16,919 nt of DNA from an uncultured bacterium (GTDB lineage Bacteria; SAR324; NAC60-12), in contig CAXGMD010000074.1 in assembly GCA_964010765.1 (NCBI GenBank), positions 1-16,919 of the forward strand, read 5' to 3'. Positions 2 through 15,611 of this stretch are shown one piece after another; positions within the stretch are counted from its first letter, which is position 1, and each line of letters begins with the position of its first letter. The position numbers were made by a program, and so were the translations under genes. The notes beneath the pieces are model-generated. The model was not told the origin of the DNA. It saw nothing but the letters and a program-made list of their open reading frames with translations, and did not search any database.

Positions 2-2032
2 ATCAGAGCCTCTAGCATCAACGGAATCTCCACCTGTTTCAGTATTGATTTTAACCTCTCCAAGTTCAGTTGATTCTTCAGCCAATTTTTGTTTTGATTC
101 AGGATTGACTACTCTAGCAGTTTGTTTAGTGACCGAAGTTTTTTCAAGAGAAAGCAAACCCACTTCTCCACCAATCTCACCCACTGCAAGTAGTTCTTTC
201 TCAGGTTCAACAGATGCCGCCACTAATGCTGTCTTAGAATTTTTGATTATTCTAAGTGGGGTGCCAGACGCAACTTCCCAAAGTCTAACGGTCTTATCTT
301 GGGAAACAGATACTAGTTGCTCTCCATAACCATCAAAAAATATCTGATGGACAATATCGCTGTGACCAACAATGACGTGTAAGAGGCTTGGCCTCTGAGG
401 ATTTGCCAAATCCCAAATCTTCACCAATCCTTCTTGACCTGATGTAGCTAGCAAAGGTTTGTGAGGATGAAATACAATATCTGTTAGATTTCTTTCGTGG
501 GCAGATGTACTTCCAACAAGAGTTGCATCTGTAGTGCGCCATATCTTGAAGGTTCTATCAACTGATCCTGTAGCCAGCAACTCACCATCTGGAGAAATAG
601 CCACGGCTGTCACTTGATCTTCATGCTCCTGCCGTTGAAAATTCATCCTCTTTGAGTTTGCATCCCAAAGAACCCACTTTCCATCAGAACCACCACTCAC
701 CAAGGTGTTACCATCTTTGCTGAAGGCTATCGCATTTACTTTGCCTTGATGCCCAGAAAGTTCGCTTGCTGGCTCATCCTCATCTAGATTCCAGAAAAGA
801 ATCTTCCCATCAGCCCCAGCTGTCACAAAGCTTGGTCCAATGGGCGAAAACTCCAGAGACTGCACTCTATGGTTCTTGGTATCAAAGTTTTTTTCTTCCA
901 GTTTGCTCTGAAGATTCCAAAGCTTCATAGTTTTGTCCAAGGAAGCAGTGACCAATCGATTACCATCTGGACTTAAGCCCAAACCTGAGATTGGTCGATC
1001 ATGTGCTAGAATTGATTCCCACTGAAACAATCTACCAGCCTGCCAAATTTGGATTTGACCTTTTTGGAGTGCAGCCATCACATTCGCTCCAGTTTTATCG
1101 AACCGGACCTGATTAGCTGGCGATTCTAGTTGAATTTTTTCTGGCAGTGCTCCTCCTGCGCGAAAATTCCAAAATCTGATTACTGATTCTTCAGAAGCTG
1201 TGATCAAAGTTTGTGCATCTGGATGCAAGTCCAAATCATGAACGGGTTTTCCAGTTTCTAAACGGAAGCCCATTTCCTCCTTATCCCAATCCCATACGAT
1301 CACGGTTCCATCAGTAGACCCTGATAATAAACGATCACCCAATTTATTGAATCGAAGTACACTAATTCTTCCAAAATGCTCACGAAACTCCCGAACAAGA
1401 GAAAAATTAGGGAAGCTCCATAGACGTAGTGTTCCCTCTTGGTCTGCACTGGCCAGTAGGTCACCTTTCGGATGAAGTGCAAGCGCAACAACTTCCGCAG
1501 GATGGGCACCGATCATTTGCTTTTCGATGACCCCTTTTTCCTGATTCCAATAAATTATCGAACCGTCAACACTGCCACTGAATAGTTCTGTGCCATCAAT
1601 ATTTTGAGCTAGGGCACTAACTGCGGTCAAATGGCCTCGCAAAACTTCCTGCTCAATACCTCGCTCCAGATCCCAGATTCTAACGGTCGAATCCATGCCA
1701 CCTGTGACCAGTTGTTGAGTCGTTGGATTTGATAAGAGTTCTTTCGGCCCATGACTCGCTGCGCTGATGTTTTTGAGGCGTTGTCCTGTTAAACCTTTCC
1801 AAACGGTAATGTTTGACGCATCATCCAAACTCACGATGAATTGATCTTCTGCACTGTAGATAGCCTTTTGAATCTTTCTTCCCTCTTGATCAATCATTTG
1901 AAAAAGTTGAAATTCTTCGGCTTGTACAAAACCACTGAAGAAAAGCATCATGACCAAACAAAGGTTCAAAGGGACATTCATGAAGAGCGTGCAAAGTTTC
2001 TGTAGGCGTGATATTGAATTCGTCTTTTGCAT
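2..2032 (-). CDS. Secreted/periplasmic WD40-repeat protein, about 14 repeats; 3' end lies beyond the left edge (partial, 677 codons in window)
   Basis: Not in the ORF track. Manual minus-strand translation from ATG 2032 (alternative ATG 1981) showed no stop to the window edge: MQKTNSISRLQKLCTLFMNVPLNLCLVMMLFFSGFVQA|EEFQ... followed by WD40 units such as LVTGGMDSTVRIWD, LRGHLTAVSAL...FSGSVDGSIIYWN, AHDRPISGLGLSPDGNRLVTASLDKTMKLWN, SGHQGKVNAIAFSKDGNTLVSGGSDGKWVLWD and VGHSDIVHQIFFDGYGEQLVSVSQDKTVRLWE, then a charged linker. Confidence 0.93.
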   Translation of the reverse strand, partial: MQKTNSISRLQKLCTLFMNVPLNLCLVMMLFFSGFVQAEEFQLFQMIDQEGRKIQKAIYSAEDQFIVSLDDASNITVWKGLTGQRLKNISAASHGPKELLSNPTTQQLVTGGMDSTVRIWDLERGIEQEVLRGHLTAVSALAQNIDGTELFSGSVDGSIIYWNQEKGVIEKQMIGAHPAEVVALALHPKGDLLASADQEGTLRLWSFPNFSLVREFREHFGRISVLRFNKLGDRLLSGSTDGTVIVWDWDKEEMGFRLETGKPVHDLDLHPDAQTLITASEESVIRFWNFRAGGALPEKIQLESPANQVRFDKTGANVMAALQKGQIQIWQAGRLFQWESILAHDRPISGLGLSPDGNRLVTASLDKTMKLWNLQSKLEEKNFDTKNHRVQSLEFSPIGPSFVTAGADGKILFWNLDEDEPASELSGHQGKVNAIAFSKDGNTLVSGGSDGKWVLWDANSKRMNFQRQEHEDQVTAVAISPDGELLATGSVDRTFKIWRTTDATLVGSTSAHERNLTDIVFHPHKPLLATSGQEGLVKIWDLANPQRPSLLHVIVGHSDIVHQIFFDGYGEQLVSVSQDKTVRLWEVASGTPLRIIKNSKTALVAASVEPEKELLAVGEIGGEVGLLSLEKTSVTKQTARVVNPESKQKLAEESTELGEVKINTETGGDSVDARGSD

Positions 2033-2093
2033 AATTCGATCTGAGTTCACGAACTTGAAGATTAAGATTTCTGTTTTCAAACTATGATGATTT

Positions 2094-4352: not shown

Positions 4353-6143
4353 AGACTGTTGTTGTTCAAGAGTTTTTAACAATTGGGCATAAATTCCATT
4401 GAGTGAGACCAATTCTGCATGATTTCCCCTCTCTGCGATGAGACCATTTGAAATCACAAGAATGTTTGTAGAGTGGCGGATTGTGCTCAACCGATGAGCT
4501 ATGGCGATAACAGTCTTGTACTTGAAAATCCTCTCGATCGCTTTCTGAATCAAATTTTCGGTCACTGAATCCACTGAGCTTGTTGCCTCATCCAGGACAA
4601 AGAGATCAGATTTACCTGCAATAGCTCTTGCAAATACAATCAGTCTCGCTTGACCTTCAGAGAGGTTTTTTCCATTTTCGAGAAGTTGAAAATCAAATTT
4701 CCCTGGTAATTTTTCAATGAATTCGTTGGCGTAAACATATCGCGCAGCTTCATCAACCTCATTCGATCCCACAATCGCCCTGCCCAATGAAATGTTGAAT
4801 CCAACACTCTCTTCAAACAAGTAAGTTTCTTGTTGTAATAGAGCAATCAGGCGTTGAAGTTTTCCTGTAGGGATTGAAGATAACTCGACTCCATTGATTC
4901 TAATTGAGCCTTCATAATTAGTGTAGGTTCTGGTCAAGATTCTAAGAATAGTTGATTTGCCCGACCCCGTTGTACCAACAATTGCAACTCTGTCCCCTTT
5001 GTTTACTTCAAAAGTGATTCCTTTGAGGACATAGGGGGAGTTGGGAGAATAACGAAAACGAACATTTTCAAATGTCAGATTCTCAAAGACTTCTAATTTT
5101 TTGGTGATTTCATTTTGTAATTGCGTTTCTGAGAGAGCCACATCTGTTTCTTCTCTAAACAATTTCTCGATATTTTCCAACGATGACATTGCTCTCTGAA
5201 AAACCGTCAGTTGTTGCGTAAACTCTCGGATAGGTACAAAGATTCGGTTCAATGTATTTATAAATCCAATCAGGGTACCTACTGTAACAGTTCCATCCAG
5301 AATTTCATGGGCGCCATACCAGATCATCAGTGCCATAGCGATAGAGGTAATTCCCTCAATGACAGAGAATAGGGTAGCATCGTAGAAATTAGAGCGCGAT
5401 TGTGCGTGAAGGAAATGCTGTGTTTTTTCCTCATATTGCTTCTGCACTTTGCTTTCAGTGGCATAAAGCTGGACTGTTTTTACGCCGTTTAAACACTCCT
5501 GTAGAAAACCCGTTGCCAGAGCTAGGGCTTCCCGAGTCAAGTTGTAGTAAAGACGGAGTTTTGCTCCCAGATAATTACTGATGAAATAAATGACCGGCAA
5601 GATGAACAAAACGATCAATGTTAACTGCCAACTGAAATAAAGCAGAACTCCAAGGAGGGCGACAGTTTTGAGTAAATCCGTAAAAATCGATAAAACCCCA
5701 GCAGCTAAGGATTCCCCTAGTGCCTCGAGGTCAGTGGTGATTCTGGTAAGAATTACTCCAACGGGTCTTTGATCAAAGAAGATTCTTGGTAAAGAGAGAA
5801 TGTGCTTGTAGAGTTCCTTGCGAAGTTCGTAGATTGCAAGTTGTCCAGTCTTTTGAAGCGAAAAGGTGTAAACCGCATCCGCCACATAGCCTAAAGTAAT
5901 GACACCTGCCGAAGCCCAGATCAACTCACTGAAGCCTTCAAATTGCCCCTTCATCAAATGATCATCGACAATTCTAATCACTAACCAAGGCAGCAGTAGC
6001 GTTGCTCCGACTGTAATTGGAATCGCGGTAAATCCTAGTAGGATCCAACGCCAGTTTGGCCACCAATAAGATAGAAATCTTGAAAAAGCCTGGGCGTCTC
6101 TATCTTTTGATAAATTAGAATCAGGTATTTTTCTGGTATTCAG
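4320..6143 (-). CDS. ABC exporter half-transporter (TMD-NBD), MdlB/TM288/YheH-like; start uncertain (CTG 6143 proposed, ORF track uses GTG 5981)
   Basis: Walker A GTTGSGKST, signature LSEGQ, Walker B/D-loop LFVLDEATSSVD, H-loop IAHRLSTI. The frame stays open upstream of 5981 to 6194 and encodes AFSRFLSYWWPNWRWILLGFTAIPITVGATLLLPWLVIRIVD, which looks like the elbow helix plus TM1. Family call is strong; start coordinate is tentative. Confidence 0.85.
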   Translation of the reverse strand: MNTRKIPDSNLSKDRDAQAFSRFLSYWWPNWRWILLGFTAIPITVGATLLLPWLVIRIVDDHLMKGQFEGFSELIWASAGVITLGYVADAVYTFSLQKTGQLAIYELRKELYKHILSLPRIFFDQRPVGVILTRITTDLEALGESLAAGVLSIFTDLLKTVALLGVLLYFSWQLTLIVLFILPVIYFISNYLGAKLRLYYNLTREALALATGFLQECLNGVKTVQLYATESKVQKQYEEKTQHFLHAQSRSNFYDATLFSVIEGITSIAMALMIWYGAHEILDGTVTVGTLIGFINTLNRIFVPIREFTQQLTVFQRAMSSLENIEKLFREETDVALSETQLQNEITKKLEVFENLTFENVRFRYSPNSPYVLKGITFEVNKGDRVAIVGTTGSGKSTILRILTRTYTNYEGSIRINGVELSSIPTGKLQRLIALLQQETYLFEESVGFNISLGRAIVGSNEVDEAARYVYANEFIEKLPGKFDFQLLENGKNLSEGQARLIVFARAIAGKSDLFVLDEATSSVDSVTENLIQKAIERIFKYKTVIAIAHRLSTIRHSTNILVISNGLIAERGNHAELVSLNGIYAQLLKTLEQQQSSTLPETGHAQ

Positions 6144-6194
6144 AGCAGAGATGAATTTGAAAAAAGGATGATGAAAATCTTTATTGGGTTGAAC

Positions 6195-6950
6195 TTAGCT
6201 AAACTTTAATTCAGTTCTTCGGCCTTGCGGGTCAATTCGCCAATATTCTCTGGTGCTTAGCCAATCTGGGATAATATGGAGTGATTTGGAGGAGTCTCGC
6301 ATCGAATACTCAAATCTTTCATGGAAATGCCCCAGAAAAAACTCATCTACTTCTTTTAAAGAAGCCTCAGCAAATTCTTCTAAGCGTTTTATTGGTAAAT
6401 GGATCTTAAATGCCTGATTGGATTGAGCCATTTTTGCCTCCAAGCTTTCTGCTATTTTGTTAGCAATTAAACTCGGGAGACATCTGAAAAGGATCTCAAA
6501 TGGTTGAGAATGAGAAAGTGCATACCACCGGAGATAATTCTTGTCATCTCGATTGACCTGATCCCCATGCTCAAAACCAAATCGCTTGCTTCCCCATGTT
6601 AAAAAGCCCCTCCCCAATGCAACTTGACTGAATGGCAACTCTGATTTCTTTAGCTGCTCTTGATTTCTTGGCAGCAGGAATTCACGGTTTCCAGCCACTA
6701 GAATCACATTGTTGGACCTTTCAGATAATCTACGAAAGGCTTTCAAGACTTCTCTATGAAGATGCGTCCAATATCGCTGATCAGCTAACCAAAGCTTAAA
6801 AAGATCACCTAAGCATATCAAAGTATGGACGTCATTTAGTGAATCCAAGAAATCAATGAATTCACCATAAGGTGCAGAATCGTAATCAAGGTGAGAATCG
6901 GTCACTAAGTAAAGGTTTCCGACGGGATCATGTATTGAGATGTCAAACAT
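6195..6950 (-). CDS. lpxH: UDP-2,3-diacylglucosamine diphosphatase-like calcineurin-family metallophosphoesterase
   Basis: Motifs TDSHL, LGDLFKLW, AGNREFLL, EHGDQVNRDDKNY and LGHFH match LpxH (DxH, GDLFxxW, GNRD, HGD..DD..Y, GHxH). ATG 6950 overlaps the upstream TGA (ATGTTTGA) and is preferred over TTG 6971. Confidence 0.75.
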   Translation of the reverse strand: MFDISIHDPVGNLYLVTDSHLDYDSAPYGEFIDFLDSLNDVHTLICLGDLFKLWLADQRYWTHLHREVLKAFRRLSERSNNVILVAGNREFLLPRNQEQLKKSELPFSQVALGRGFLTWGSKRFGFEHGDQVNRDDKNYLRWYALSHSQPFEILFRCLPSLIANKIAESLEAKMAQSNQAFKIHLPIKRLEEFAEASLKEVDEFFLGHFHERFEYSMRDSSKSLHIIPDWLSTREYWRIDPQGRRTELKFS

Positions 6951-7893
6951 TCTGTGGAACGAATTCGGCAAAACTTGCTTCGTGTAGTTTTCTTATTTCG
7001 AGATCAGGGATTTGGTATAAAATTTCTTGAGCTTCGTCCAAAAACTTCTGCATCACGGATAACGTTTTTTCTTTTGGATATCCCTTCAATTTACCTTTCA
7101 ACTCTGAAATCCCTTTCTCATTGGGGTTTTCTATTTTTATCTGCCAACTTGCTAGTTCTGGATCAGATAATTCACTCAACCAAATAACCAATGGGAAAAA
7201 GCTGAGTTTCGCAGAAATTTTCTCCTCTAACAGCTGTGGATCATCAAGAATTTGAAGATCATTTTTAAGAATTAGGGCAACACCCCATTTTTCACCAAAA
7301 GTCATTAGTTGTTGTTGTAAATTAGAGTTAGCTCCTCCCCAGATAGCACCACATTTTGCCGCTGCAGCCAATAAGCTAGCATCTTTTTCCCTGTAGACCT
7401 GCAAACATTTTTCAGGATCATTCTTAGAAGAAGCCCTTTCGGAAACTTCTAGGATTTGTCCCCTGGCGATATTTCTAGTAGCCCATGAGACGCATTGCAG
7501 AATTTCAATTTGCTCCAATCGTGTAAGAATTTGAAATGAAATTGAGAGTAGATAGTCCCCGAGTAATAGACTTGCTTCATTGCCCCACAAACTATCCAGA
7601 CTTCTCATTTGCCTTCTTGTTTGATTCGTCTCCGTAATGTTGCGATGAAGCACAGATGCAATATGCAAAAACTCTAGAGTACTCGCGGTGTGATAGGCGG
7701 CCTCAGGCTGGTCAGGTTGAAAAAGTTCAGAACACCTTAAAAGAAGAAAAGATCGGTATGGAGTGTGATGTGAGTCAATCAAGTAACGAATGATATCAGA
7801 CAGGAAGGGAACAGGACCTTGGAGATTAGTTTTAATCGCAGAATTGATTCTTTGAATTTCTGACTCGAACAATAATGAAGAGGAATCCGACAT
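6943..7893 (-). CDS. Trans-isoprenyl diphosphate synthase (IspB-like) homologue lacking both DDxxD motifs; predicted non-catalytic
   Basis: Scaffold motifs retained (LEFLHIASVLH, TRR, WGNEASLLLGDYLLS, IARGQILE, FGEKWGVA). First Asp-rich motif reads RNITE, second reads NDLQI, and KT reads KD. The ORF is uninterrupted at 316 aa. Confidence 0.88.
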   Translation of the reverse strand: MSDSSSLLFESEIQRINSAIKTNLQGPVPFLSDIIRYLIDSHHTPYRSFLLLRCSELFQPDQPEAAYHTASTLEFLHIASVLHRNITETNQTRRQMRSLDSLWGNEASLLLGDYLLSISFQILTRLEQIEILQCVSWATRNIARGQILEVSERASSKNDPEKCLQVYREKDASLLAAAAKCGAIWGGANSNLQQQLMTFGEKWGVALILKNDLQILDDPQLLEEKISAKLSFFPLVIWLSELSDPELASWQIKIENPNEKGISELKGKLKGYPKEKTLSVMQKFLDEAQEILYQIPDLEIRKLHEASFAEFVPQNV

Positions 7894-7898
7894 GGGTT

Positions 7899-8741
7899 TT
7901 AATTTTGTAGAATTCCAGGACGACTAAGATGGTAGGCTTCGACAAATACCGCAGCAAGAATGAGTGCAAAACCGATGATTGGCCAATAGGGACTCCATCT
8001 ACTGCGAATACTTTGTAAATGATAGTCAAGGAGAAACATTGCATAAACAAACCAAACCCCTACTGAGAGAAGTAGCCGCAAAGATGTTTCACCAATCAAA
8101 ATACTTTTGCTGAGCATCACTCCCAAAACTACTCCGATACTCAACAGTAGAAATCCCCATTTTATGGCAACATAGCTTGTTTTTTCTAATGTGCCTAGGG
8201 CTGGCATCCTTAGTCGAAGAACTCCCTCCAATTTAGTCTTGAGTCGATAATTTTGGTAAACAAACAGGCTGCTAGCAAGGCAAGCCAAGCTGAAAAATGT
8301 GTATCCACCAATAGTACTAATTATATGGGTCAAAAGCGCAGTTTGATAAATCCAAGGCTCTTGATTGCTCAAGGCAAGTGCCGGAATGCCACCCTGTGCA
8401 ATACTGATTGAAAGAATAAGAATAAGTACTGCAAATATTGGTAGGATCTCTACTTGTATCAGCTTAGACATTGGCACATGAAACCAAATCAGCCCACCTA
8501 TACTAAACCATGCTACAAAACTCAGGACATCACTGATGAACATGGTTGGCCAGAAAGCTTCCCACCACCATAATCCAATTATCAAGGTGCCGGCATGCAG
8601 TAACCAAAAAACAAAGAAGATTCTCTCACTCCACCTCAATAGCTTGGAATTATGATTTAGTGATTGGGAGAGTCTAACCCCCCAACTGAAAAGATAACCA
8701 AATACACAACCCCACATACCTGTTTGTAGTAGCCAGTTCAC
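7899..8741 (-). CDS. Cytochrome c assembly family membrane protein (CcsA/HemX/YpjD-like) without a WWD motif
   Basis: Multi-TM protein with LLTHII...GYTFF...LFVYQNYRLKTK...RMPALGTLEK...WGFLLLSIGVVLG...SVGVWFVY, the pattern of this family. GTG start overlaps the recJ TGA (GTGA, 8738-8741). Confidence 0.75.
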   Translation of the reverse strand: MNWLLQTGMWGCVFGYLFSWGVRLSQSLNHNSKLLRWSERIFFVFWLLHAGTLIIGLWWWEAFWPTMFISDVLSFVAWFSIGGLIWFHVPMSKLIQVEILPIFAVLILILSISIAQGGIPALALSNQEPWIYQTALLTHIISTIGGYTFFSLACLASSLFVYQNYRLKTKLEGVLRLRMPALGTLEKTSYVAIKWGFLLLSIGVVLGVMLSKSILIGETSLRLLLSVGVWFVYAMFLLDYHLQSIRSRWSPYWPIIGFALILAAVFVEAYHLSRPGILQN

Positions 8742-10477
8742 GCTACTGGCCTTAAATCAAGTACTCTGAATTGAAGAGCATTTTGGTTGAACCTACTTAT
8801 AATTTGAGGGCTCACGACCATATCAAAATACCCTCCCAAGTTGGGATACCAATCCGAACTATCCCAGGCGACTACCTCATATTTTTGATCATCATTGATA
8901 AGATTAAATTTCAGGTGGTTATTCCCAAACAATGAAATTGAATGCGGTTTAACCTTCCTGATGCCAATCACTGGTTCAGGATTATTTGGACCAAAAGGTG
9001 CCAGCCTTATCAAATCGCTAGCAAGCTGAGGGCTTAGATCTTCTTCATTTATCCAAGTTTCTATTTCTAAAAAATTCTCACCAAATTGTTTCTCAAATTC
9101 TTTTCCGCCCATTAAATATTGAAATTGTTCGCGAAAAGCTTCCATGTTTTTCGCCATCAAGCTCAGACCAGCTGCAGCCTGATGGCCACCAAATCTTTCT
9201 AAAACATCTGAACAGTTTGCAAGTACAGAGCGCACGTCAAACCCATCTAAACTACGCGCACTCCCACCAAGAAGTTCCCCTTGGTTTCGTGTCAGGGCTA
9301 ATGTAGTTTTTTGAAATTGGCGGGAAATCTTCGTCGCAATATTGCCCATCACACCCGGATGCCAGTTTTCATCAAATAAAATGATCGCATTGAGATGCGT
9401 CTGCTCAGAAGCCTGTCTCAAAGCACTGTGAAAAATTTCTCTCTCGATCATTTGACGTTCGCTGTTCAACTGAAGCAATTTATCAGCATACGGCTTGGCT
9501 TCGTTCAAGGAATGCGAAAGTAGAAGGCGAACACCAATTCGTGGGTCACTAAGTCGCCCCACTGCATTTATTTTAGGAGCTATTTTAAAGCTGATTGTGG
9601 TGGGAGTTATTCTACCACGTTGATGACTTGCTCGCATCAACGCCTGCAGTCCGGGTCGGGGGTGATCGTTCAGCACTTCCAAACCAGCCTGAACAAAGAA
9701 TCGGTTTTCGCCGGTCAGAGGCACTCTATCAGCTATCGTGGCAAGGCATACCAGATCCAAATCCCTTTTTAAGTCTGGCCTTATATAGCTGGTCTCCTGC
9801 CAATAACCTTTCTCTGTCAAGGTTTGATCCAAAGCTTGAAGCAGCTTATAAGCCACACCAGTACCACACAAGCCCTTGAAAGGATACTTACAGTTGGGTT
9901 GCTGAGGGTTGATCATTGCCGTAGCGTTCGGAATCTCTTCACCCAGAAGATGATGATCCGTGATCAGCAATTCCATGCCCAGTTCACGAATTATCAGAGC
10001 CTCCTCTACAGCAGTTGCTCCGTTGTCAACGGTCAGAATGAGGTCTGTTTTTCGACTTTTAAGCTCAACCAACGTCGGCTCGGTCAGCCCATAGCCATCT
10101 TTCAGGCGCTCAGGTATGAAATAATGCGCCTTGAGACCGATTCTTTTAAGATATCGATAGAGAATGACCGCACCAGCGGTACCATCAACGTCATAATCTC
10201 CATAGACAACCAAAGTTTCCCCATGGTTAAGAGCCTTTAAGATTCTCTCGACAGCTATCTGCATATCAGCCATCAAGAAAGGATCTGAACAATGCTCAAA
10301 GCGGGGATACAAAAAAGCTTCAATTTCCTCCAACTTTTCGAGTTGGCGAATTGTCAGAAGCTCCGCAACTACCTTTGACAACCCTAATTCTTTGCGAATG
10401 TGGTTGACAAGAAACGTCGATGAAGGTGATTCCAAATCCTGCCACGACAGGTCCCGAAAACTAGGGAGCTTTGTCAT
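8738..10477 (-). CDS. recJ: Single-stranded DNA 5'-3' exonuclease RecJ
   Basis: YGDYDVDG, TVDNG, TDHH, TIADRVPL, APKINAVGRL, WHPGVMG, GSARS, FGGHQAAAG, LAPFGPNNPEP; all DHH/DHHA1 motifs intact. Confidence 0.97.
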   Translation of the reverse strand: MTKLPSFRDLSWQDLESPSSTFLVNHIRKELGLSKVVAELLTIRQLEKLEEIEAFLYPRFEHCSDPFLMADMQIAVERILKALNHGETLVVYGDYDVDGTAGAVILYRYLKRIGLKAHYFIPERLKDGYGLTEPTLVELKSRKTDLILTVDNGATAVEEALIIRELGMELLITDHHLLGEEIPNATAMINPQQPNCKYPFKGLCGTGVAYKLLQALDQTLTEKGYWQETSYIRPDLKRDLDLVCLATIADRVPLTGENRFFVQAGLEVLNDHPRPGLQALMRASHQRGRITPTTISFKIAPKINAVGRLSDPRIGVRLLLSHSLNEAKPYADKLLQLNSERQMIEREIFHSALRQASEQTHLNAIILFDENWHPGVMGNIATKISRQFQKTTLALTRNQGELLGGSARSLDGFDVRSVLANCSDVLERFGGHQAAAGLSLMAKNMEAFREQFQYLMGGKEFEKQFGENFLEIETWINEEDLSPQLASDLIRLAPFGPNNPEPVIGIRKVKPHSISLFGNNHLKFNLINDDQKYEVVAWDSSDWYPNLGGYFDMVVSPQIISRFNQNALQFRVLDLRPVA

Positions 10478-10510
10478 GTGAGGACCAATTAAACCATTAA
10501 AATTTATGTG

Positions 10511-10546
10511 GAAAAATTAAATCTAATCTAGCAAGAAAAATTAAAT
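10511..10546. repeat. 12-bp perfect direct repeat GAAAAATTAAAT x2
   Basis: Copies at 10511-10522 and 10535-10546 (24-bp period), flanking the putative -10 element. Confidence 0.6.
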
Positions 10547-10553
10547 AAGTCTA
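10525..10553 (-). promoter_or_regulatory. Putative sigma70-type promoter for the recJ operon
   Basis: Minus strand reads TAGACT (10553-10548), a 17-nt spacer ending in TGc, then TAGATT (10530-10525), about 48 nt upstream of the recJ ATG in an AT-rich intergenic region. Confidence 0.45.
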
Positions 10554-10591
10554 CTTTGCCTCATCTGGTACCAAGTGTTACTATTGAAAAT

Positions 10592-11131
10592 TTATTTTGA
10601 TAATTTTGAGCTGAATCTACCTGGGATCATAAGTTGTAGAGTAGCAGTTTCGGGCGCAATTTCTGACCACAAAGAGATATTCAAGTTCATCTGGACGAAT
10701 GAACCCGTGGTTATCTGCAGAGGAATTGAAACTATAGATCCCGTGAGGATCCAAGAGATAAATTCTTCCAAACCTGGATTATGACCAACGATCAGAAGTG
10801 TTTGGATTTTTTCAGGAACTTCCTGAATTCTAGAAAGTATTTCTTCTTTAGAGGCGTGATAAAGCTCCTTTTCTTCTTCAATTTTGAAGAGAGTCGACAT
10901 TCCCCGACAAAAACCAGTTAAAGTATCAAGTGTTCTCCTGGAGTGTGAAGTAAGTATCAACTCAGGTGGTAAATTCAGCATCGCTGCAAGATTAGCCAGA
11001 CCAGGAAGATTATCTTTGCCTCTTTTATTCAGTGGCCGATCAAGATCAGAAAGATTTGAATTGTCCCAAGCTGATTTAGCATGCCTCAATAAATACAGGG
11101 TCTTTAGTGGATTCTGAGTTATTTTATCCAT
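10592..11131 (-). CDS. sixA: SixA-like histidine phosphatase
   Basis: LYLLRHAKS (RHA/G motif), DRPLNKRG, IVGHNPGLE. ATG 11131 is preceded by AGGA (SD-like) and is preferred over TTG 11146. Confidence 0.88.
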   Translation of the reverse strand: MDKITQNPLKTLYLLRHAKSAWDNSNLSDLDRPLNKRGKDNLPGLANLAAMLNLPPELILTSHSRRTLDTLTGFCRGMSTLFKIEEEKELYHASKEEILSRIQEVPEKIQTLLIVGHNPGLEEFISWILTGSIVSIPLQITTGSFVQMNLNISLWSEIAPETATLQLMIPGRFSSKLSK

Positions 11132-11152
11132 TTCGTCCTGCTGCAAATCTAG

Positions 11153-11938
11153 TCAACTCTTTTGAAGAAAATTCACTATCTCTGATAAAACATAGTCTTG
11201 AGATGTTTTTTCCAACATGGGGTGGTGACCTGCTTTCTCAAAGAATATAGATTTCACTTCAGATCTTTTCGCCTTTTTTTGTAAAAGACTACTCACTCCA
11301 GGGCCGATCACATCATCCTGTCCACCTTCCACAACAAGAATGTTTTGTTCCAATTGTGGGATAATTTCCAAAACTAGGTCCTGAAGATCAATCAATTGCA
11401 ACACAGCTTTCAAGGAGTGCTCTGAGTAACCCTGCCACTGAAGATCAACACTTTTTTTTTCTTTGGGAAAAGTGCTTTTAAAGAATGAAAGCAGCCAAAT
11501 CAACTGCCTTTTCCAATCTGGGAGATTTAACTGAAGCGCTGGCGCAACAAGAACCACTCCTTTTGGACGAATAGTCTGTAAACATGCCAACCAAAGCGCA
11601 AGCAGACCTCCGGCCGATTCACCAGCGATGAAAGTTTCATCACAATATTGATTCAATTCTCGCCAGCAGTGCTCGACCTTTTCAGCCCAATCTCGCCAGG
11701 TCGTTGTGGCTAACTTTTCAAGATTTTCTCCATGACCCGGAAGTAATGGTGCGGAAATAGTCCATTCTAGTTCGCCAAGTAGACTAGCAATCGGCCGGAC
11801 AGAGTTAGTTGTTGCAGTAAGACCGTGTAGGAGGAGAATACCTCGTCCACTTCTCTTTTCAAATAAACTATCTCCAGCCAAATGAGGATTTACTAAGTTT
11901 TTTGGATTAATCACTTCACAATCTTTCTTAAAATTCAT
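11153..11938 (-). CDS. Alpha/beta-hydrolase carboxylesterase / monoacylglycerol lipase-like
   Basis: GILLLHGLT oxyanion motif, PLLPGHG, nucleophile elbow GESAGG, acid residue in QDDVI and His in AGHH; triad appears complete. Confidence 0.88.
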   Translation of the reverse strand: MNFKKDCEVINPKNLVNPHLAGDSLFEKRSGRGILLLHGLTATTNSVRPIASLLGELEWTISAPLLPGHGENLEKLATTTWRDWAEKVEHCWRELNQYCDETFIAGESAGGLLALWLACLQTIRPKGVVLVAPALQLNLPDWKRQLIWLLSFFKSTFPKEKKSVDLQWQGYSEHSLKAVLQLIDLQDLVLEIIPQLEQNILVVEGGQDDVIGPGVSSLLQKKAKRSEVKSIFFEKAGHHPMLEKTSQDYVLSEIVNFLQKS

Positions 11939-12092: not shown

Positions 12093-13034
12093 ATGATTGA
12101 AGTTATTGAAATATCAAGAAATTTTGGAAAATTTCAAGCTGTGAATAAAGTTTCTTTTCAAGTGCAAAAGAGCAAGGTACTAGGGTTTTTAGGACCAAAC
12201 GGCGCAGGTAAATCTACGACCATGAAAATGCTAACAGGCTATCTCCAACCCAGCAGTGGAGATGCATTCATTTGCGGCCACAGTGTCACCAAACAATCAA
12301 TCAAAGCCAGAGCGGAAATTGGCTACCTTCCAGAGAGTGCACCTTCTTACGGTGAAATGCAGGTAGAAGAGTTCCTGAGATTCGCCGGGAAGGTGAGGGG
12401 ACTGAATGGGGAAAGGTTAAATTTCCAGATTGAAAAAGTCTTGGAAGAAACATCATTGAAGACTGTAAGAAATCAACTTATTGAGACTCTTTCAAAAGGC
12501 TACCGCCAGCGTACTTGTCTTGCCCAATCTCTGCTTCATGACCCACCCGTCTTGCTGTTAGATGAACCCACAGATGGCCTCGACCCTAACCAAAAACATG
12601 AGGTTCGAAACCTAATCAGCCAATTGAAGGAAGATCGGACAATTTTAGTTTCTACCCATATTCTAGAGGAGGTTGAGGCAATCTGCTCCCGAGTAATCAT
12701 TCTCTCGGAAGGCAAAATAGTTGGTGATGGAACACCTGAAGAACTTCTTTCGAGGTCCATCTACCACAACGCAATTAACTTAAAAATTAGTGCACAATCC
12801 AATCAGGATTTTCAGCAAATTCTCCAAGAAATTCCTAGTGTTGAGAAAGTTGAGATCCATGGTACCAACCACCAAACTCTTAAATTCCTTATTTTGCCAA
12901 AGCAAGGAAAATCCATTTTGGAAGAAGTGAAGGAACGTCTCGATCAAAACAACGTCAAAATAGTAGAGATGTATGTGGAGAAAGGTCGTTTAGACGAGGT
13001 ATTTCGCCAAATGACTACAATGGAGGCCACATGA
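12093..13034 (+). CDS. ABC-2 type ATP-binding protein (GldA-like)
   Basis: GFLGPNGAGKSTT, IGYLPE, LSKGYRQR, LLLDEPTDGLDP, STHILEEV; ATGA overlap with the next gene. Confidence 0.93.
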   Translation: MIEVIEISRNFGKFQAVNKVSFQVQKSKVLGFLGPNGAGKSTTMKMLTGYLQPSSGDAFICGHSVTKQSIKARAEIGYLPESAPSYGEMQVEEFLRFAGKVRGLNGERLNFQIEKVLEETSLKTVRNQLIETLSKGYRQRTCLAQSLLHDPPVLLLDEPTDGLDPNQKHEVRNLISQLKEDRTILVSTHILEEVEAICSRVIILSEGKIVGDGTPEELLSRSIYHNAINLKISAQSNQDFQQILQEIPSVEKVEIHGTNHQTLKFLILPKQGKSILEEVKERLDQNNVKIVEMYVEKGRLDEVFRQMTTMEAT

Positions 13035-13765
13035 ACGGAATAGTCCCTATTTTCGAACGCGAACTCTATGCGTATTTTCGGTCACCTGTTGCTTATGTCT
13101 TTATCATAGTATTCCTGATTGCATCCACGAGTTGCACATTTTTCTTGGGAGGTTTTTACGAATCACAGCAAGCCAGCCTGGAAATTTTCTTCTTGTTTCA
13201 TCCTTGGCTATATCTCTTCCTCATTCCTGCAGTCGGCATGAGGCTCTGGGCTGAGGAACGTCGTTCAGGAACCGCCGAATTGTTGCTGACTTTCCCAATA
13301 CATCCTCATACAGCTGTGCTAGGAAAATTTCTGGCTGGTTGGGTTTTTATTGGCTTAGCCCTACTGCTAACTTTTCCAATGATCATTACAGTAAATTATC
13401 TAGGACAACCTGATCACGGACCAATTTTTACCGGATATCTGGGGAGTTTTCTGATGGCAGGAGCTTATCTAGCAATATCAATCTGCACTTCGGCCCTCAC
13501 GAAGAATCAGGTGATCAGCTTTATTCTCAGTGTTGTGATTTGCCTAATTTTAGTTCTTTTGGGATGGGGTGTTTTGACTGATTCACTAAATCATCTATTT
13601 CCTGTCTGGATTGCGGATTTAGTTAGTCAATTCAGTTTCACTGCTCATTTTGATGCCATCAGGAGAGGCGTGATTGATTTTAGAGATGTGATTTATTTCT
13701 GTTCTATTATCGGATTTATGCTGGTGCTAAATGTTCGAATCTTAACAACCAGCAAAAGTCGTTAA
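13031..13765 (+). CDS. ABC-2 type permease (GldF-like)
   Basis: RELYAYFRSPVAY, MRLWAEERRSGTAELLLT, VLGKF, SALTKNQVISF, RGVIDFRD; GGAGG SD upstream. Confidence 0.92.
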   Translation: MNGIVPIFERELYAYFRSPVAYVFIIVFLIASTSCTFFLGGFYESQQASLEIFFLFHPWLYLFLIPAVGMRLWAEERRSGTAELLLTFPIHPHTAVLGKFLAGWVFIGLALLLTFPMIITVNYLGQPDHGPIFTGYLGSFLMAGAYLAISICTSALTKNQVISFILSVVICLILVLLGWGVLTDSLNHLFPVWIADLVSQFSFTAHFDAIRRGVIDFRDVIYFCSIIGFMLVLNVRILTTSKSR

Positions 13766-13781
13766 TTTTGGATGAGGTAAA

Positions 13782-15611
13782 ATGAAGAACTGGTCCTTGA
13801 ATAGTATTTTTCTGCTGTTGCTACTCGTTTGTTTAATTTCTATCAACGCTGTCGCATATCATGTTCCCCTACGAATAGATGCGACAACTGACAAACTCTA
13901 CACAATTTCAGAGGGTTCCAAAAAAATATTGACGGAGTTAGAAGATCCGGTTCGTGTTAAATTTTATTTCAGCTTTCACAATGAACAATTGCCTCCAAGC
14001 CTAAAAACATACGCTCAGCGAGTTGTTGAGTTGTTGGGTGAATATCAAACGATTTCCTTGGGAAAAATGACCCTGGAAGTCTTCGATCCTAAACCAGATA
14101 CAGAGGAGGAGGAGTGGGCAATCCGTTATGGGATGGAAGCACCAAAACTTCCCAATGGGGATAGCATCTTTTTTGGAGCCACATTTCTGCAAGTGGATCA
14201 AGAAATAACTATCCCTTTCTTTGACCCAAGGAGGCAGGAGTTTTTAGAGTATGACATCACTCTAGCAATCCACAGAGTAACCGAAGTCGAATTGCCAAAG
14301 ATTGCCATCTGGTCAGACCTCCCGATAAAAGGTAATCCACAGTTGATGATGCAACGACAAGGTGGAGAACCTTGGGCTTTATCAGAGGAAATTGAAAAAC
14401 TGTTTGATGTCGAGTTTTTACAATCTTCGTCAGGATCAATTTCAAATGATATTGATCTCCTCATGCTTCTACATCCAAAAAATCTAACTGATAATCAACT
14501 CTATCAGATTGACCAATACGTGCTGAAGGGTGGTAACCTTTTTCTTGCTTTGGACCCAAATGCCCGAGCAGAAGCTGCGACAGGAGGGCAGTCTCCTCAA
14601 AGTTTTGCTAGTGATTTGCCGAGATTACTTGAGAGTTGGGGAGTTCGTTATGATTCAAACCAAGTAGTTGGGGATCTCCAGCTTGCCACTTCAGTCAACA
14701 GTCGCAATGGAGTTTTGAGATTCCCTCCCTGGATCTCACTCGGCGTGAACCAACTCGACCGCCAGCATCCAATTACAAGTCAACTAGAGCAATTATTGTT
14801 CGCTGAGGCGGGGAATTTATCTCCATTAGATAATGCGACTACTACTTTTGAAGCTTTGATCAAAACCTCACCAAACAGCGGCTCTATCGATGCGCTTCAA
14901 CTGCGCTTTGGAAGCCCTGAGCAAATCGCCCGCAACATACAGGTGGATGGTCAACAAAAAACACTTCTGGCCCAAATTCATGGCACCTTTCAAAGTGCGT
15001 TTTCTGAGGGACCACCTGAGGGAGTAAGCGATGAGTCTTTTATCAAGAGATCTGAAGCATCCAGAACCATTTTGTTAGCTTCAGACGTTGACTGGATGAC
15101 AGACGGTTTTTCAATTCAAAGACTGAACTTGCTGGGTCAAAGTATTGTCCAACCCACCAATGACAATCTGAACTTGGCTTTGAATATCATTGAATATTTG
15201 AGCGGAAACGATGCCTTGCGTGAAATCCGTTCCAGAGGACAATTTCAACGCCCATTCACTCGTGTACTGGCACTTCAACAAGAAGCCCAAATTAAGTACC
15301 AACAGGAAGAAAATCAACTGCAAGCCAGTCTCGATAAAGTCCAAAATGAGCTAAATAATTTGCTTCAGGGGGTTCAGAAAGGAGAAAAGGAAATTCTCTT
15401 GCCCAAAGAAGTTCAAGATAAAATTGCTAATTTTCGAGAGCAGGAACGCCAAACCAGGCGTGAGTTGCGTGAGGTCAGAAAAATCCTTAGACAAGATATT
15501 GAAGAACTTGGTAATAATTTGCTTCTGGCAAACATGTTAATCGTTCCAGGTTTTGTAGGACTCTTTGGTTTTTTGATTTATCGTCGTCGGACAAGCGGAT
15601 TTAGAAACTAA
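13782..15611 (+). CDS. GldG-like ABC accessory / substrate-binding membrane protein
   Basis: N-terminal TM, RIDATTDKLYTISEGS, LEYDIT, IDQYVLKGG..LDP, NLNLALNIIEYLSG...EIRSRG..RPFT, long coiled coil, C-terminal TM followed by RRR; GAGG SD upstream. Confidence 0.9.
   Translation: MKNWSLNSIFLLLLLVCLISINAVAYHVPLRIDATTDKLYTISEGSKKILTELEDPVRVKFYFSFHNEQLPPSLKTYAQRVVELLGEYQTISLGKMTLEVFDPKPDTEEEEWAIRYGMEAPKLPNGDSIFFGATFLQVDQEITIPFFDPRRQEFLEYDITLAIHRVTEVELPKIAIWSDLPIKGNPQLMMQRQGGEPWALSEEIEKLFDVEFLQSSSGSISNDIDLLMLLHPKNLTDNQLYQIDQYVLKGGNLFLALDPNARAEAATGGQSPQSFASDLPRLLESWGVRYDSNQVVGDLQLATSVNSRNGVLRFPPWISLGVNQLDRQHPITSQLEQLLFAEAGNLSPLDNATTTFEALIKTSPNSGSIDALQLRFGSPEQIARNIQVDGQQKTLLAQIHGTFQSAFSEGPPEGVSDESFIKRSEASRTILLASDVDWMTDGFSIQRLNLLGQSIVQPTNDNLNLALNIIEYLSGNDALREIRSRGQFQRPFTRVLALQQEAQIKYQQEENQLQASLDKVQNELNNLLQGVQKGEKEILLPKEVQDKIANFREQERQTRRELREVRKILRQDIEELGNNLLLANMLIVPGFVGLFGFLIYRRRTSGFRN

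Follow-up and report, generated by a model that had tools for sequence, protein, structure and literature searches.

We describe here a gene in a 16,919-nucleotide stretch of DNA (the window; contig CAXGMD010000074.1) from an uncultured bacterium of the SAR324 lineage. The gene occupies window positions 6943-7893 on the minus strand and encodes a paralogue of the polyprenyl diphosphate synthase IspB that is DD-less, having lost the aspartates of the DDxxD motifs; we refer to it as psIspB. Our analyses make it very probable that psIspB is a conserved pseudoenzyme derived from IspB, and it is probably a non-catalytic partner or a lipid-binding protein rather than a dying gene. By analogy with known heteromeric synthases, we tentatively favour the reading that psIspB pairs, as a non-catalytic subunit, with a catalytic trans-prenyl synthase, IspB being the most plausible one, and give this a rough probability of 0.45.

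Loss of the catalytic motifs

The open reading frame (ORF) of psIspB encodes 316 amino acids and is uninterrupted by stop codons, as read from the ORF list and the translation. Its motifs were read by aligning it to the IspB of its own genome, and family-wide column counts were taken from an alignment of 28 psIspB family sequences; all motif coordinates below are on the minus strand. SHHTPYRS (residues 41-48; 7750-7773) replaces the GGKRLRP motif that binds isopentenyl diphosphate (IPP), with residues 42-48 (HHTPYRS) standing where IspB has GGKRLRP; the lysine is lost, while R47 is invariant in the family. The first DDxxD, or first aspartate-rich motif (FARM), is DDVVD in IspB and RNITE in psIspB (residues 84-88; 7630-7644), and the preceding H83 is invariant. 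The second aspartate-rich motif (SARM, FQxxDDxxD), which is FQIVDDVLD in IspB, is replaced by LILKNDLQI (residues 207-215; 7249-7275), where the second acidic position alone survives. K170-D171 (7381-7386) replaces KT, with K170 invariant and position 171 variable, and the loop equivalent to GKPVGTDL of IspB is shorter by 4-5 residues, its motif gone. GDYLL, GQ and the RR pair of IspB are still present, and the RR pair (R93-R94; 7612-7617) is invariant in 28/28 sequences. The initial annotation had listed RNITE, LILKNDLQI, HHTPYRS, KD, the missing GKxxGxD loop and the RR pair, and the alignment agreed with it on each.

Across the 28 sequences, FARM position 1 is Arg in 16, Gln in 8 and His in 4, and position 2 is Asn in 10, His in 9, Arg in 4, Lys in 3 and Gln and Tyr in one each, neither position being acidic in any sequence; position 5 is Glu in 12 and mixed in the rest. 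SARM position 1 is mixed and position 2 is acidic throughout (Asp in 20, Glu in 8). The column of the GK lysine (44) and column 171, after K170, are variable. Ahead of the FARM, position -5 (residue 79) is Ala in 27 sequences and Ser in one, and position -4 (residue 80) is Ser, Ala or Thr. Since the same losses recur in all 28 aligned members, the loss of the motifs is not due to chance, and the Asp loss proved common to the orthologues, every one examined being without the DDxxD aspartates. Twenty-two columns are invariant: R47, E74, L76, H83, R93, R94, E106, L110, G112, D113, Y114, L116, S117, F120, T139, I142, G145, Q146, K170, L174, G200 and G204.

According to PMC7815940, Mg2+ on the DDxxD aspartates of both motifs is required to bind the allylic diphosphate. 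The same source describes Arg112, Lys200 and Lys257 of human farnesyl diphosphate synthase (FPPS) as touching the allylic diphosphate directly and Lys57, Arg60 and Arg113 as binding IPP (PMC7815940). Four of these six basic residues are kept in psIspB (Arg60 as R47, Arg112/Arg113 as R93/R94 and Lys200 as K170), and Lys57 and Lys257 are lost; E74 corresponds to Glu93 of human FPPS. Because all Mg2+-binding DDxxD aspartates are replaced, except for one acidic residue at the second SARM position, psIspB is predicted to be unable to ionise an allylic diphosphate or to run the Mg2+-dependent condensation.

psIspB matches the Pfam family PF00348 (polyprenyl_synt) over residues 30-212 with 102.5 bits against a cut-off of 27. 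Each of the 16 NCBIfam models that it matches stays under its cut-off (86.4 bits against 412 for PRK10888, octaprenyl, and 76.5 against 383 for TIGR02749), so that psIspB scores four- to five-fold under every NCBIfam enzyme cut-off. In a sequence search of the PDB the best match was 3mzv_A (E 5.2e-27). An AlphaFold2 (AF2) model built from the family alignment had a mean predicted local distance difference test (pLDDT) of 84.8 and a predicted template modelling score of 0.86, and confidence dropped only at the two ends of the chain and in the loop that follows the former FARM (residues 88-99, pLDDT <50). Foldseek searches with this model returned long-chain prenyl diphosphate synthases as best matches, 3mzv_A at E 4.7e-12, with template modelling scores of 0.76-0.83 among the top matches; these included the Rhodobacter decaprenyl (3mzv), E. 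coli octaprenyl (5ze6, 3wjk) and M. tuberculosis Rv0562 enzymes, as well as the catalytic chains of the B. subtilis and M. luteus heterodimers. No fused form was found among proteins of 554-2000 amino acids at E <= 1e-20, which is weak evidence. One candidate two-domain protein (P0019) was discarded, being a fragment on a 1.3-kb contig that gave PF00348 alone when rescanned. The ESM Atlas returned nothing beyond generic polyprenyl synthetase clusters. Where public records name the orthologues, they use 'polyprenyl synthetase' or 'octaprenyl-diphosphate synthase', a label that is probably mistaken.

Purifying selection and shift of constraint

The psIspB gene is under clear purifying selection and evolves about twice as fast as IspB. 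Among four members of its genus (6 pairs, Nei-Gojobori method), the ratio of nonsynonymous to synonymous substitution rates (dN/dS) was 0.10-0.16, compared to 0.045-0.089 for IspB and 0.03-0.08 for the neighbouring CcsA-like gene in the same four genomes. The initial annotation had proposed a pseudoenzyme rather than a decaying gene, and both these ratios and the retention of psIspB across the family uphold that view.

This constraint is distributed very differently from that in the active enzyme. The most conserved segment of the family is helix E of the AF2 model (residues 106-126, EASLLLGDYLLSISFQILTRL; 7516-7578, minus strand), with a mean entropy of 0.49 bits, followed by helix F (1.19) and helix D (1.36), while the C-terminal third reaches 2.3-2.6 bits. 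In a matched set of 13 genomes, psIspB is more variable than IspB overall (1.76 vs 1.17 bits), but its helix E is less so (0.43 vs 0.61 bits). The former GKRxRP and FARM sites stand at 1.80-1.87 bits and the SARM helix at 1.57 in these genomes, while the same sites of IspB have 0.00-0.56. Constraint has therefore shifted from the catalytic sites to the dimer-interface helix, in which 15/21 residues are identical between psIspB and the IspB of its own genome. Most trans-prenyltransferases are described as dimerising via helices E and F, where a helix E Phe stacks against its counterpart (PMC7261888). The offset of the invariant F120 from the GD motif makes it the probable stacking residue. The small residues at -4/-5 suggest an open long-chain tunnel. 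Taken together, psIspB appears to keep the dimer helix, the open tunnel and part of the basic diphosphate pocket.

Contigs from RNA libraries of four studies cover psIspB at low depth. In one marine metatranscriptome they span 6856-7784, with one differing letter in all of them, and in three salt-marsh runs they are 90-99% alike along the whole stretch. Level, strand and transcript ends are not readable from such contigs and DNA carry-over is possible, so that they give only a hint that psIspB is expressed.

Distribution and origin

Two sets of genomes were compared, namely the SAR324 family of the window (f1; 25 genomes, G000-G024) and its sister family (f2; 16 genomes). A DD-less orthologue was present in 19/25 f1 genomes and in 0/16 f2 genomes, where all 16 best matches carry GGKRxRP, HDDVVD, KT and DDxLD. 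Four of the six f1 genomes that are negative for psIspB are 67-88% complete and also without the CcsA-like neighbour gene; in these, the psIspB locus was probably not assembled. In the 12-Mb f1 genome G012 we observed a very divergent DD-less PF00348 frame of 245 amino acids (L070, C746:69800-71300), which has RQAEG at the FARM site and is 25% identical to IspB. psIspB itself is intact in 18 of the 19 genomes that have it, which represent at least 11 genera at 30-40% identity.

When 5.8 billion proteins were searched by a word index, 71 matched at E <= 1e-10, and in 67 of them, down to 35% identity, DDxxD is absent at both canonical sites by regular expression, a result confirmed by alignment for 19 of the 67. 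The four weakest matches (P0069-P0072) are normal enzymes of the catalytic type. A profile run exhaustively against 1.84 billion representatives at 50% identity returned 28,246 matches at E <= 0.001; among the best 150 of these, 15 full-length proteins (at least 237 bits) and one fragment (212 bits) are DD-less, and full-length matches at 217 bits or below are catalytic. Since DD-less matches are confined to the top scores of the profile search, the psIspB family is small and sharply bounded. A pattern scan of species-representative genomes kept 80 loci, 29 of which are DD-less and titled SAR324 cluster, Deltaproteobacteria, Lambdaproteobacteria or uncultured proteobacterium, with a few titled merely 'bacterium'. 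The remaining 51, most of them titled Planctomycetota, were rejected as psIspB; they are catalytic with both motifs and had matched via a similar helix E.

In a maximum-likelihood tree of 71 sequences, the DD-less proteins are monophyletic (99 in the Shimodaira-Hasegawa approximate likelihood ratio test, SH-aLRT) and nested in a 52-row group (SH-aLRT 99) with the catalytic IspBs of both SAR324 families. Their branches are far longer than those of IspB, and the branching of genera broadly mirrors that of IspB. When the DD-less proteins and the f1 IspBs were constrained to form one clade, the likelihood was 11.4 log units higher than in a free quick search (p of 0.757 in the approximately unbiased, AU, test). 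The placement in the tree and the AU test, together with the distribution in f1 only, point to an IspB duplication at the base of f1 as the origin of psIspB, and a position as sister to f1 IspB is allowed. Because the DD-less clade sits beside SAR324 IspB, the likeness of psIspB to the eukaryotic subunits Dlp1 and PDSS2 would be convergent, a placement drawn from a tree of bacterial sequences with no PDSS2 or Dlp1 included.

Catalytic paralogues

The genome of the window (G000; 3.86 Mb in 266 contigs, 92% complete) contains three more PF00348 genes, each with both DDxxD motifs. An IspB-like gene with intact DDxxD was looked for elsewhere in the genome and was found on contig C63; it encodes 354 amino acids and is 29% identical to psIspB. 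The gene on contig C128 encodes a short-chain-type synthase with Phe at -5. The third gene, on contig C29 (L003 1300-2421), encodes a 373-residue protein whose N-terminus is extended by about 60 residues and whose residues at -4/-5 are small, as would suit a second synthase of medium or long chains. Catalytic IspB was verified in 17/19 psIspB genomes, the two others being G013, where it was not found, and G021, which was left out. A Pfam scan found no other prenyl synthase in the window, and none was present near psIspB at the 12 loci examined (its own and 11 orthologous ones).

Genomic context

The psIspB gene lies in a tightly packed series of genes on the minus strand, which probably form a transcription unit headed by recJ (8738-10477; TIGR00644, 518 bits) and shared by the CcsA-like gene and psIspB. 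The stop of recJ overlaps by 4 bp the start of a gene for a YpjD/CcsA-like polytopic membrane protein (7899-8741; PF01578, 51.9 bits), and 5 bp separate the end of this gene at 7899 from the start of psIspB. On the other side, psIspB is followed by an LpxH-like metallophosphoesterase gene (6195-6971) that overlaps the psIspB stop codon by 29 bp if it starts at TTG 6971 or by 8 bp if it starts at the in-frame ATG 6950. ATG 6950 is the likely start, and its overlap with the stop reads ATGTTTGA, which suggests translational coupling. The close packing of an intact 316-residue ORF between its neighbours, noted in the initial annotation, was seen again when the ORF was reread. A promoter and terminator scan of window positions 5900-11300 gave sites no commoner than in shuffled sequence.

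The order recJ, CcsA-like gene, psIspB recurs at 5 loci of other genomes. No neighbour is more consistent than the CcsA-like gene, which lies directly upstream of psIspB in 14/19 genomes; the remaining five have it elsewhere, G013 on the same chromosome at a distance of more than 2 Mb and the others on a different contig. It is single-copy and is also found in 11/16 f2 genomes, and its presence in a family that has no psIspB makes it independent of psIspB. Its product of about 280 amino acids has several hydrophobic spans, and the Trp-rich WWD motif of heme handling was not evident in alignment and hydropathy analyses; we take this member of the Cytochrom_C_asm family to be YpjD/HemX-like. Complex prediction for the CcsA-like protein and psIspB gave 0.00 in both runs, which had no controls and bear neither way on binding. 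At four loci from four genera, a gene for a PIG3-family NAD(P)H quinone oxidoreductase (QOR; TIGR02824, 396 bits) lies directly upstream of psIspB (L025 9153-10133; L027 7235-8215; L029 7050-8042; L035 9243-10223). In G015 it stands between the CcsA-like gene and psIspB, and because of this arrangement the ancestral order may have been recJ, ccsA-like, QOR, psIspB. The genes downstream vary, with an LpxH-like gene in the genus of the window, crotonase and YdiJ genes, or PAPS reductase and CysN genes. The LpxH-like neighbour was seen in the own genus (locus L034) and at 0/11 loci of other genera; its product matches LpxH models only below their cut-offs (82.8 bits against 134 for PRK05340, and 67.7 against 190).

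Two further features of the window were recorded. Positions 2-2080 (minus strand) encode a large bacterial WD40 beta-propeller protein of at least 693 amino acids, open at the window edge, with at least 9 WD repeats; it matches many propeller families with eukaryotic names and no NCBIfam model. Positions 12093-15611 (plus strand) encode a trio resembling the GldA/GldF/GldG ABC transporter, with scores under the gliding-motility equivalog cut-offs. To our knowledge, gliding has not been described in this lineage.

Discussion

IspB (octaprenyl, solanesyl or decaprenyl diphosphate synthase) builds the tails of quinones and is treated as a simple homodimer in proteobacteria-like lineages. psIspB has the same fold and length, its best sequence and structure matches are enzymes of this type, and its helix E is largely that of IspB; in contrast, it is without both DDxxD motifs, the GK lysine, the KT threonine and the Lys-bearing loop, and its pattern of constraint is inverted. 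Partners without the aspartate-rich motifs are established in several heteromeric synthases, i.e. Dps1/Dlp1, PDSS1/PDSS2, the large and small subunits of the mint enzyme, HexB/HexA and HepT/HepS (described in PMC4049637 and PMC7839719). Dlp1/PDSS2 is the 'D-less' subunit of the heterotetrameric decaprenyl diphosphate synthase of fission yeast, mouse and human, according to PMC4049637. Like it, psIspB is a full-length homologue of long-chain synthases that lacks the Asp-rich motifs and has a catalytic paralogue in the same genome (compare PMC4049637). Unlike it, psIspB is bacterial, with its origin placed in SAR324 IspB, and the catalytic IspB of SAR324 looks like the normal homodimeric type, unlike the partner of Dlp1/PDSS2. 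For Dlp1/PDSS2 the complex with the catalytic subunit and its requirement for activity have been shown, whereas psIspB is a candidate for such a role. The initial annotation had called psIspB 'Dlp1/PDSS2-like', which is apt as an analogy between DD-less synthase homologues but probably not as a matter of descent, given that the tree, which had no PDSS2 or Dlp1 sequence in it, and the AU test place its origin in f1 IspB.

Small subunits of the HexA/HepS type are shorter and far more diverged, occur in Firmicutes and Actinobacteria, and have their genes next to those of the catalytic chains, hepS/hepT and hexA/hexB being operon partners. HexA of Micrococcus luteus and HepS of Bacillus subtilis, the small subunits of hexa- and heptaprenyl diphosphate synthases, carry no DDxxD, and HexA is thought to help measure chain length by its hydrophobic cavity (PMC7839719). 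psIspB is likewise bacterial and DDxxD-less, and it scores 19.4 bits (E 8.9e-4) with HEPPP_synt_1 (PF07307), under the cut-off of 30. It differs from these subunits in being full-length, clearly derived from IspB (at the 29% identity given above) and not encoded beside a catalytic gene. The small subunits of plants bind the large subunit via CxxxC motifs, and this spacing is absent among the four cysteines read in the psIspB sequence. The small subunits (SSU-I, SSU-II) of plant geranyl and geranylgeranyl diphosphate synthases (GPPS/GGPPS) and the rice GGPPS-recruiting protein heterodimerise with the catalytic enzyme and alter its product or location, as reported in PMC7839719. psIspB resembles them in being a DDxxD-less paralogue of a catalytic prenyl synthase, and the rice protein (5xn6_C) was a weak match in the PDB (E 3.6e-7); the plant subunits derive from a short-chain GGPPS, and thus differ in lineage and origin. 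Our full-text literature search, with most subscription journals outside its coverage, returned no account of a full-length D-less paralogue of IspB in bacteria. Going by its sequence, psIspB would represent a non-catalytic prenyl-synthase paralogue, derived from IspB, of independent bacterial origin.

Beyond the motif loss, conservation, origin and co-occurrence with IspB that were observed, we infer dimerisation, a partner and an effect on the product. Helices E and F of psIspB would hold it in a dimer with a catalytic trans-prenyl synthase, for which IspB is the most plausible candidate, and as a non-catalytic subunit psIspB might tune the activity, stability or product chain length of that enzyme. 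Selection has preserved helix E, and less strictly helices F and D, along with the small residues at -4/-5 and the basic residues that contact diphosphate. We favour such a partnership because constraint peaks on the dimer helix, because this helix matches that of IspB and because the same solution has evolved repeatedly in other synthases.

Several observations weigh against this partnership. psIspB (contig C74) and IspB (contig C63) are on separate contigs and not adjacent, and the recurrent neighbours of psIspB encode a membrane protein and a quinone oxidoreductase instead of enzymes that act on isoprenoids. In G013, assembled as a single contig of 4.26 Mb, the DD-less gene is intact, and family and protein searches found no IspB there, only psIspB and a short-chain-type synthase with Phe at -5. 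Synteny of G013 (L053-L055) with its congener G022 (L043) stops precisely where the IspB locus ends, and no bases are masked; if the absence of IspB is real, it argues against an obligate partnership with IspB. UbiA-family genes were present in G013 and four relatives (5/5), although the scan cannot separate heme O synthase from quinone prenyltransferases. The f1 genome G014 shows the converse, as IspB was found and the DD-less gene was not. The G011 orthologue (L010, C22:8345-9169), the sole broken copy among the 19 genomes, has one in-frame TAA at about residue 121, which may reflect either an error in sequencing or recent gene loss. Finally, the invariant R47, R93, R94, K170 and H83 would be unneeded in a purely structural partner and fit ligand binding as well or better.

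Such binding is central to the main alternative, namely that psIspB is a stand-alone, probably homodimeric and metal-independent binder of isoprenoid diphosphate (IPP or polyprenyl) that acts as a carrier, buffer or sensor and may have a membrane role alongside the upstream YpjD/CcsA-like protein. We regard this as possible but rather unlikely. The invariant R47, R93/R94, K170 and E74 match diphosphate residues of FPPS, the FARM aspartates have given way to basic or neutral side chains (R/Q/H, then N/H/R/K), a reversal of charge that could replace Mg2+, and the small residues at -5 and -4 (Ala in 27/28 at the former; Ser, Ala or Thr at the latter) fit an open chain tunnel. The CcsA-like gene lying immediately upstream in most genomes, only 5 bp away in the window, and the retention of psIspB in G013 speak for it as well. 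However, it is helix E and not the pocket loops that is under the strongest constraint, and the GK lysine and the Lys-bearing loop, which bind diphosphate in active enzymes, are lost; moreover, the CcsA-like gene occurs in f2 genomes that have no psIspB and is unlinked from it in five genomes. A more specific proposal, in which psIspB is not a subunit but a metal-independent isoprenoid-diphosphate module that works with the CcsA-like protein and, in some genera, with the PIG3-type QOR, its basic residues replacing the Mg2+ cluster, seems to us improbable. If true, it would mean an undescribed system that hands over, senses or buffers polyprenyl diphosphate or quinone tails at the membrane.

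It is somewhat more doubtful still that psIspB is a neofunctionalised enzyme that carries out another reaction on a prenyl or diphosphate substrate by means of H83, R84, D/E212, Q146, D113 and K170. Polar pocket residues are invariant across sequences of about 30% identity, SARM position 2 is acidic without exception, and prenyl diphosphate enzymes without a canonical DDxxD exist, YtpB being an example mentioned in PMC7839719. Yet conservation is lowest in the C-terminal third, the part of this fold that closes the active site, the loop after the former FARM is modelled with low confidence, and the neighbouring genes suggest no pathway. That psIspB still works as a polyprenyl diphosphate synthase with unorthodox motifs is highly improbable; despite an intact fold, the retained RR pair and K170 and the one acidic SARM residue left, 3/3 FARM and 2/3 SARM aspartates are gone in 28/28 members, its scores fall well under every NCBIfam enzyme cut-off, and binding of the allylic substrate requires Mg2+ on those aspartates (PMC7815940). 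We give least credence of all to a decaying or functionless duplicate. The internal stop in G011, the failure to find the gene in G014, a rate about twice that of IspB and the far longer branches would fit decay, but they have to be set against intact copies in 18/19 genomes and at least 11 genera, 22 invariant columns, a dN/dS of 0.10-0.16, a helix E tighter than in the active enzyme and RNA-library contigs that cover the gene.

In conclusion, a full-length, IspB-derived Asp-less paralogue, long retained in SAR324, would add an independent and convergent example of a D-less pseudoenzyme, and the presence of active and dead copies in the same genomes provides a natural experiment on how constraint moves within a protein. 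If psIspB pairs with IspB, the synthesis of bacterial quinone tails may be regulable by the exchange of subunits. If it does not, the diphosphate-binding residues that it has retained would point to a new use of the fold.

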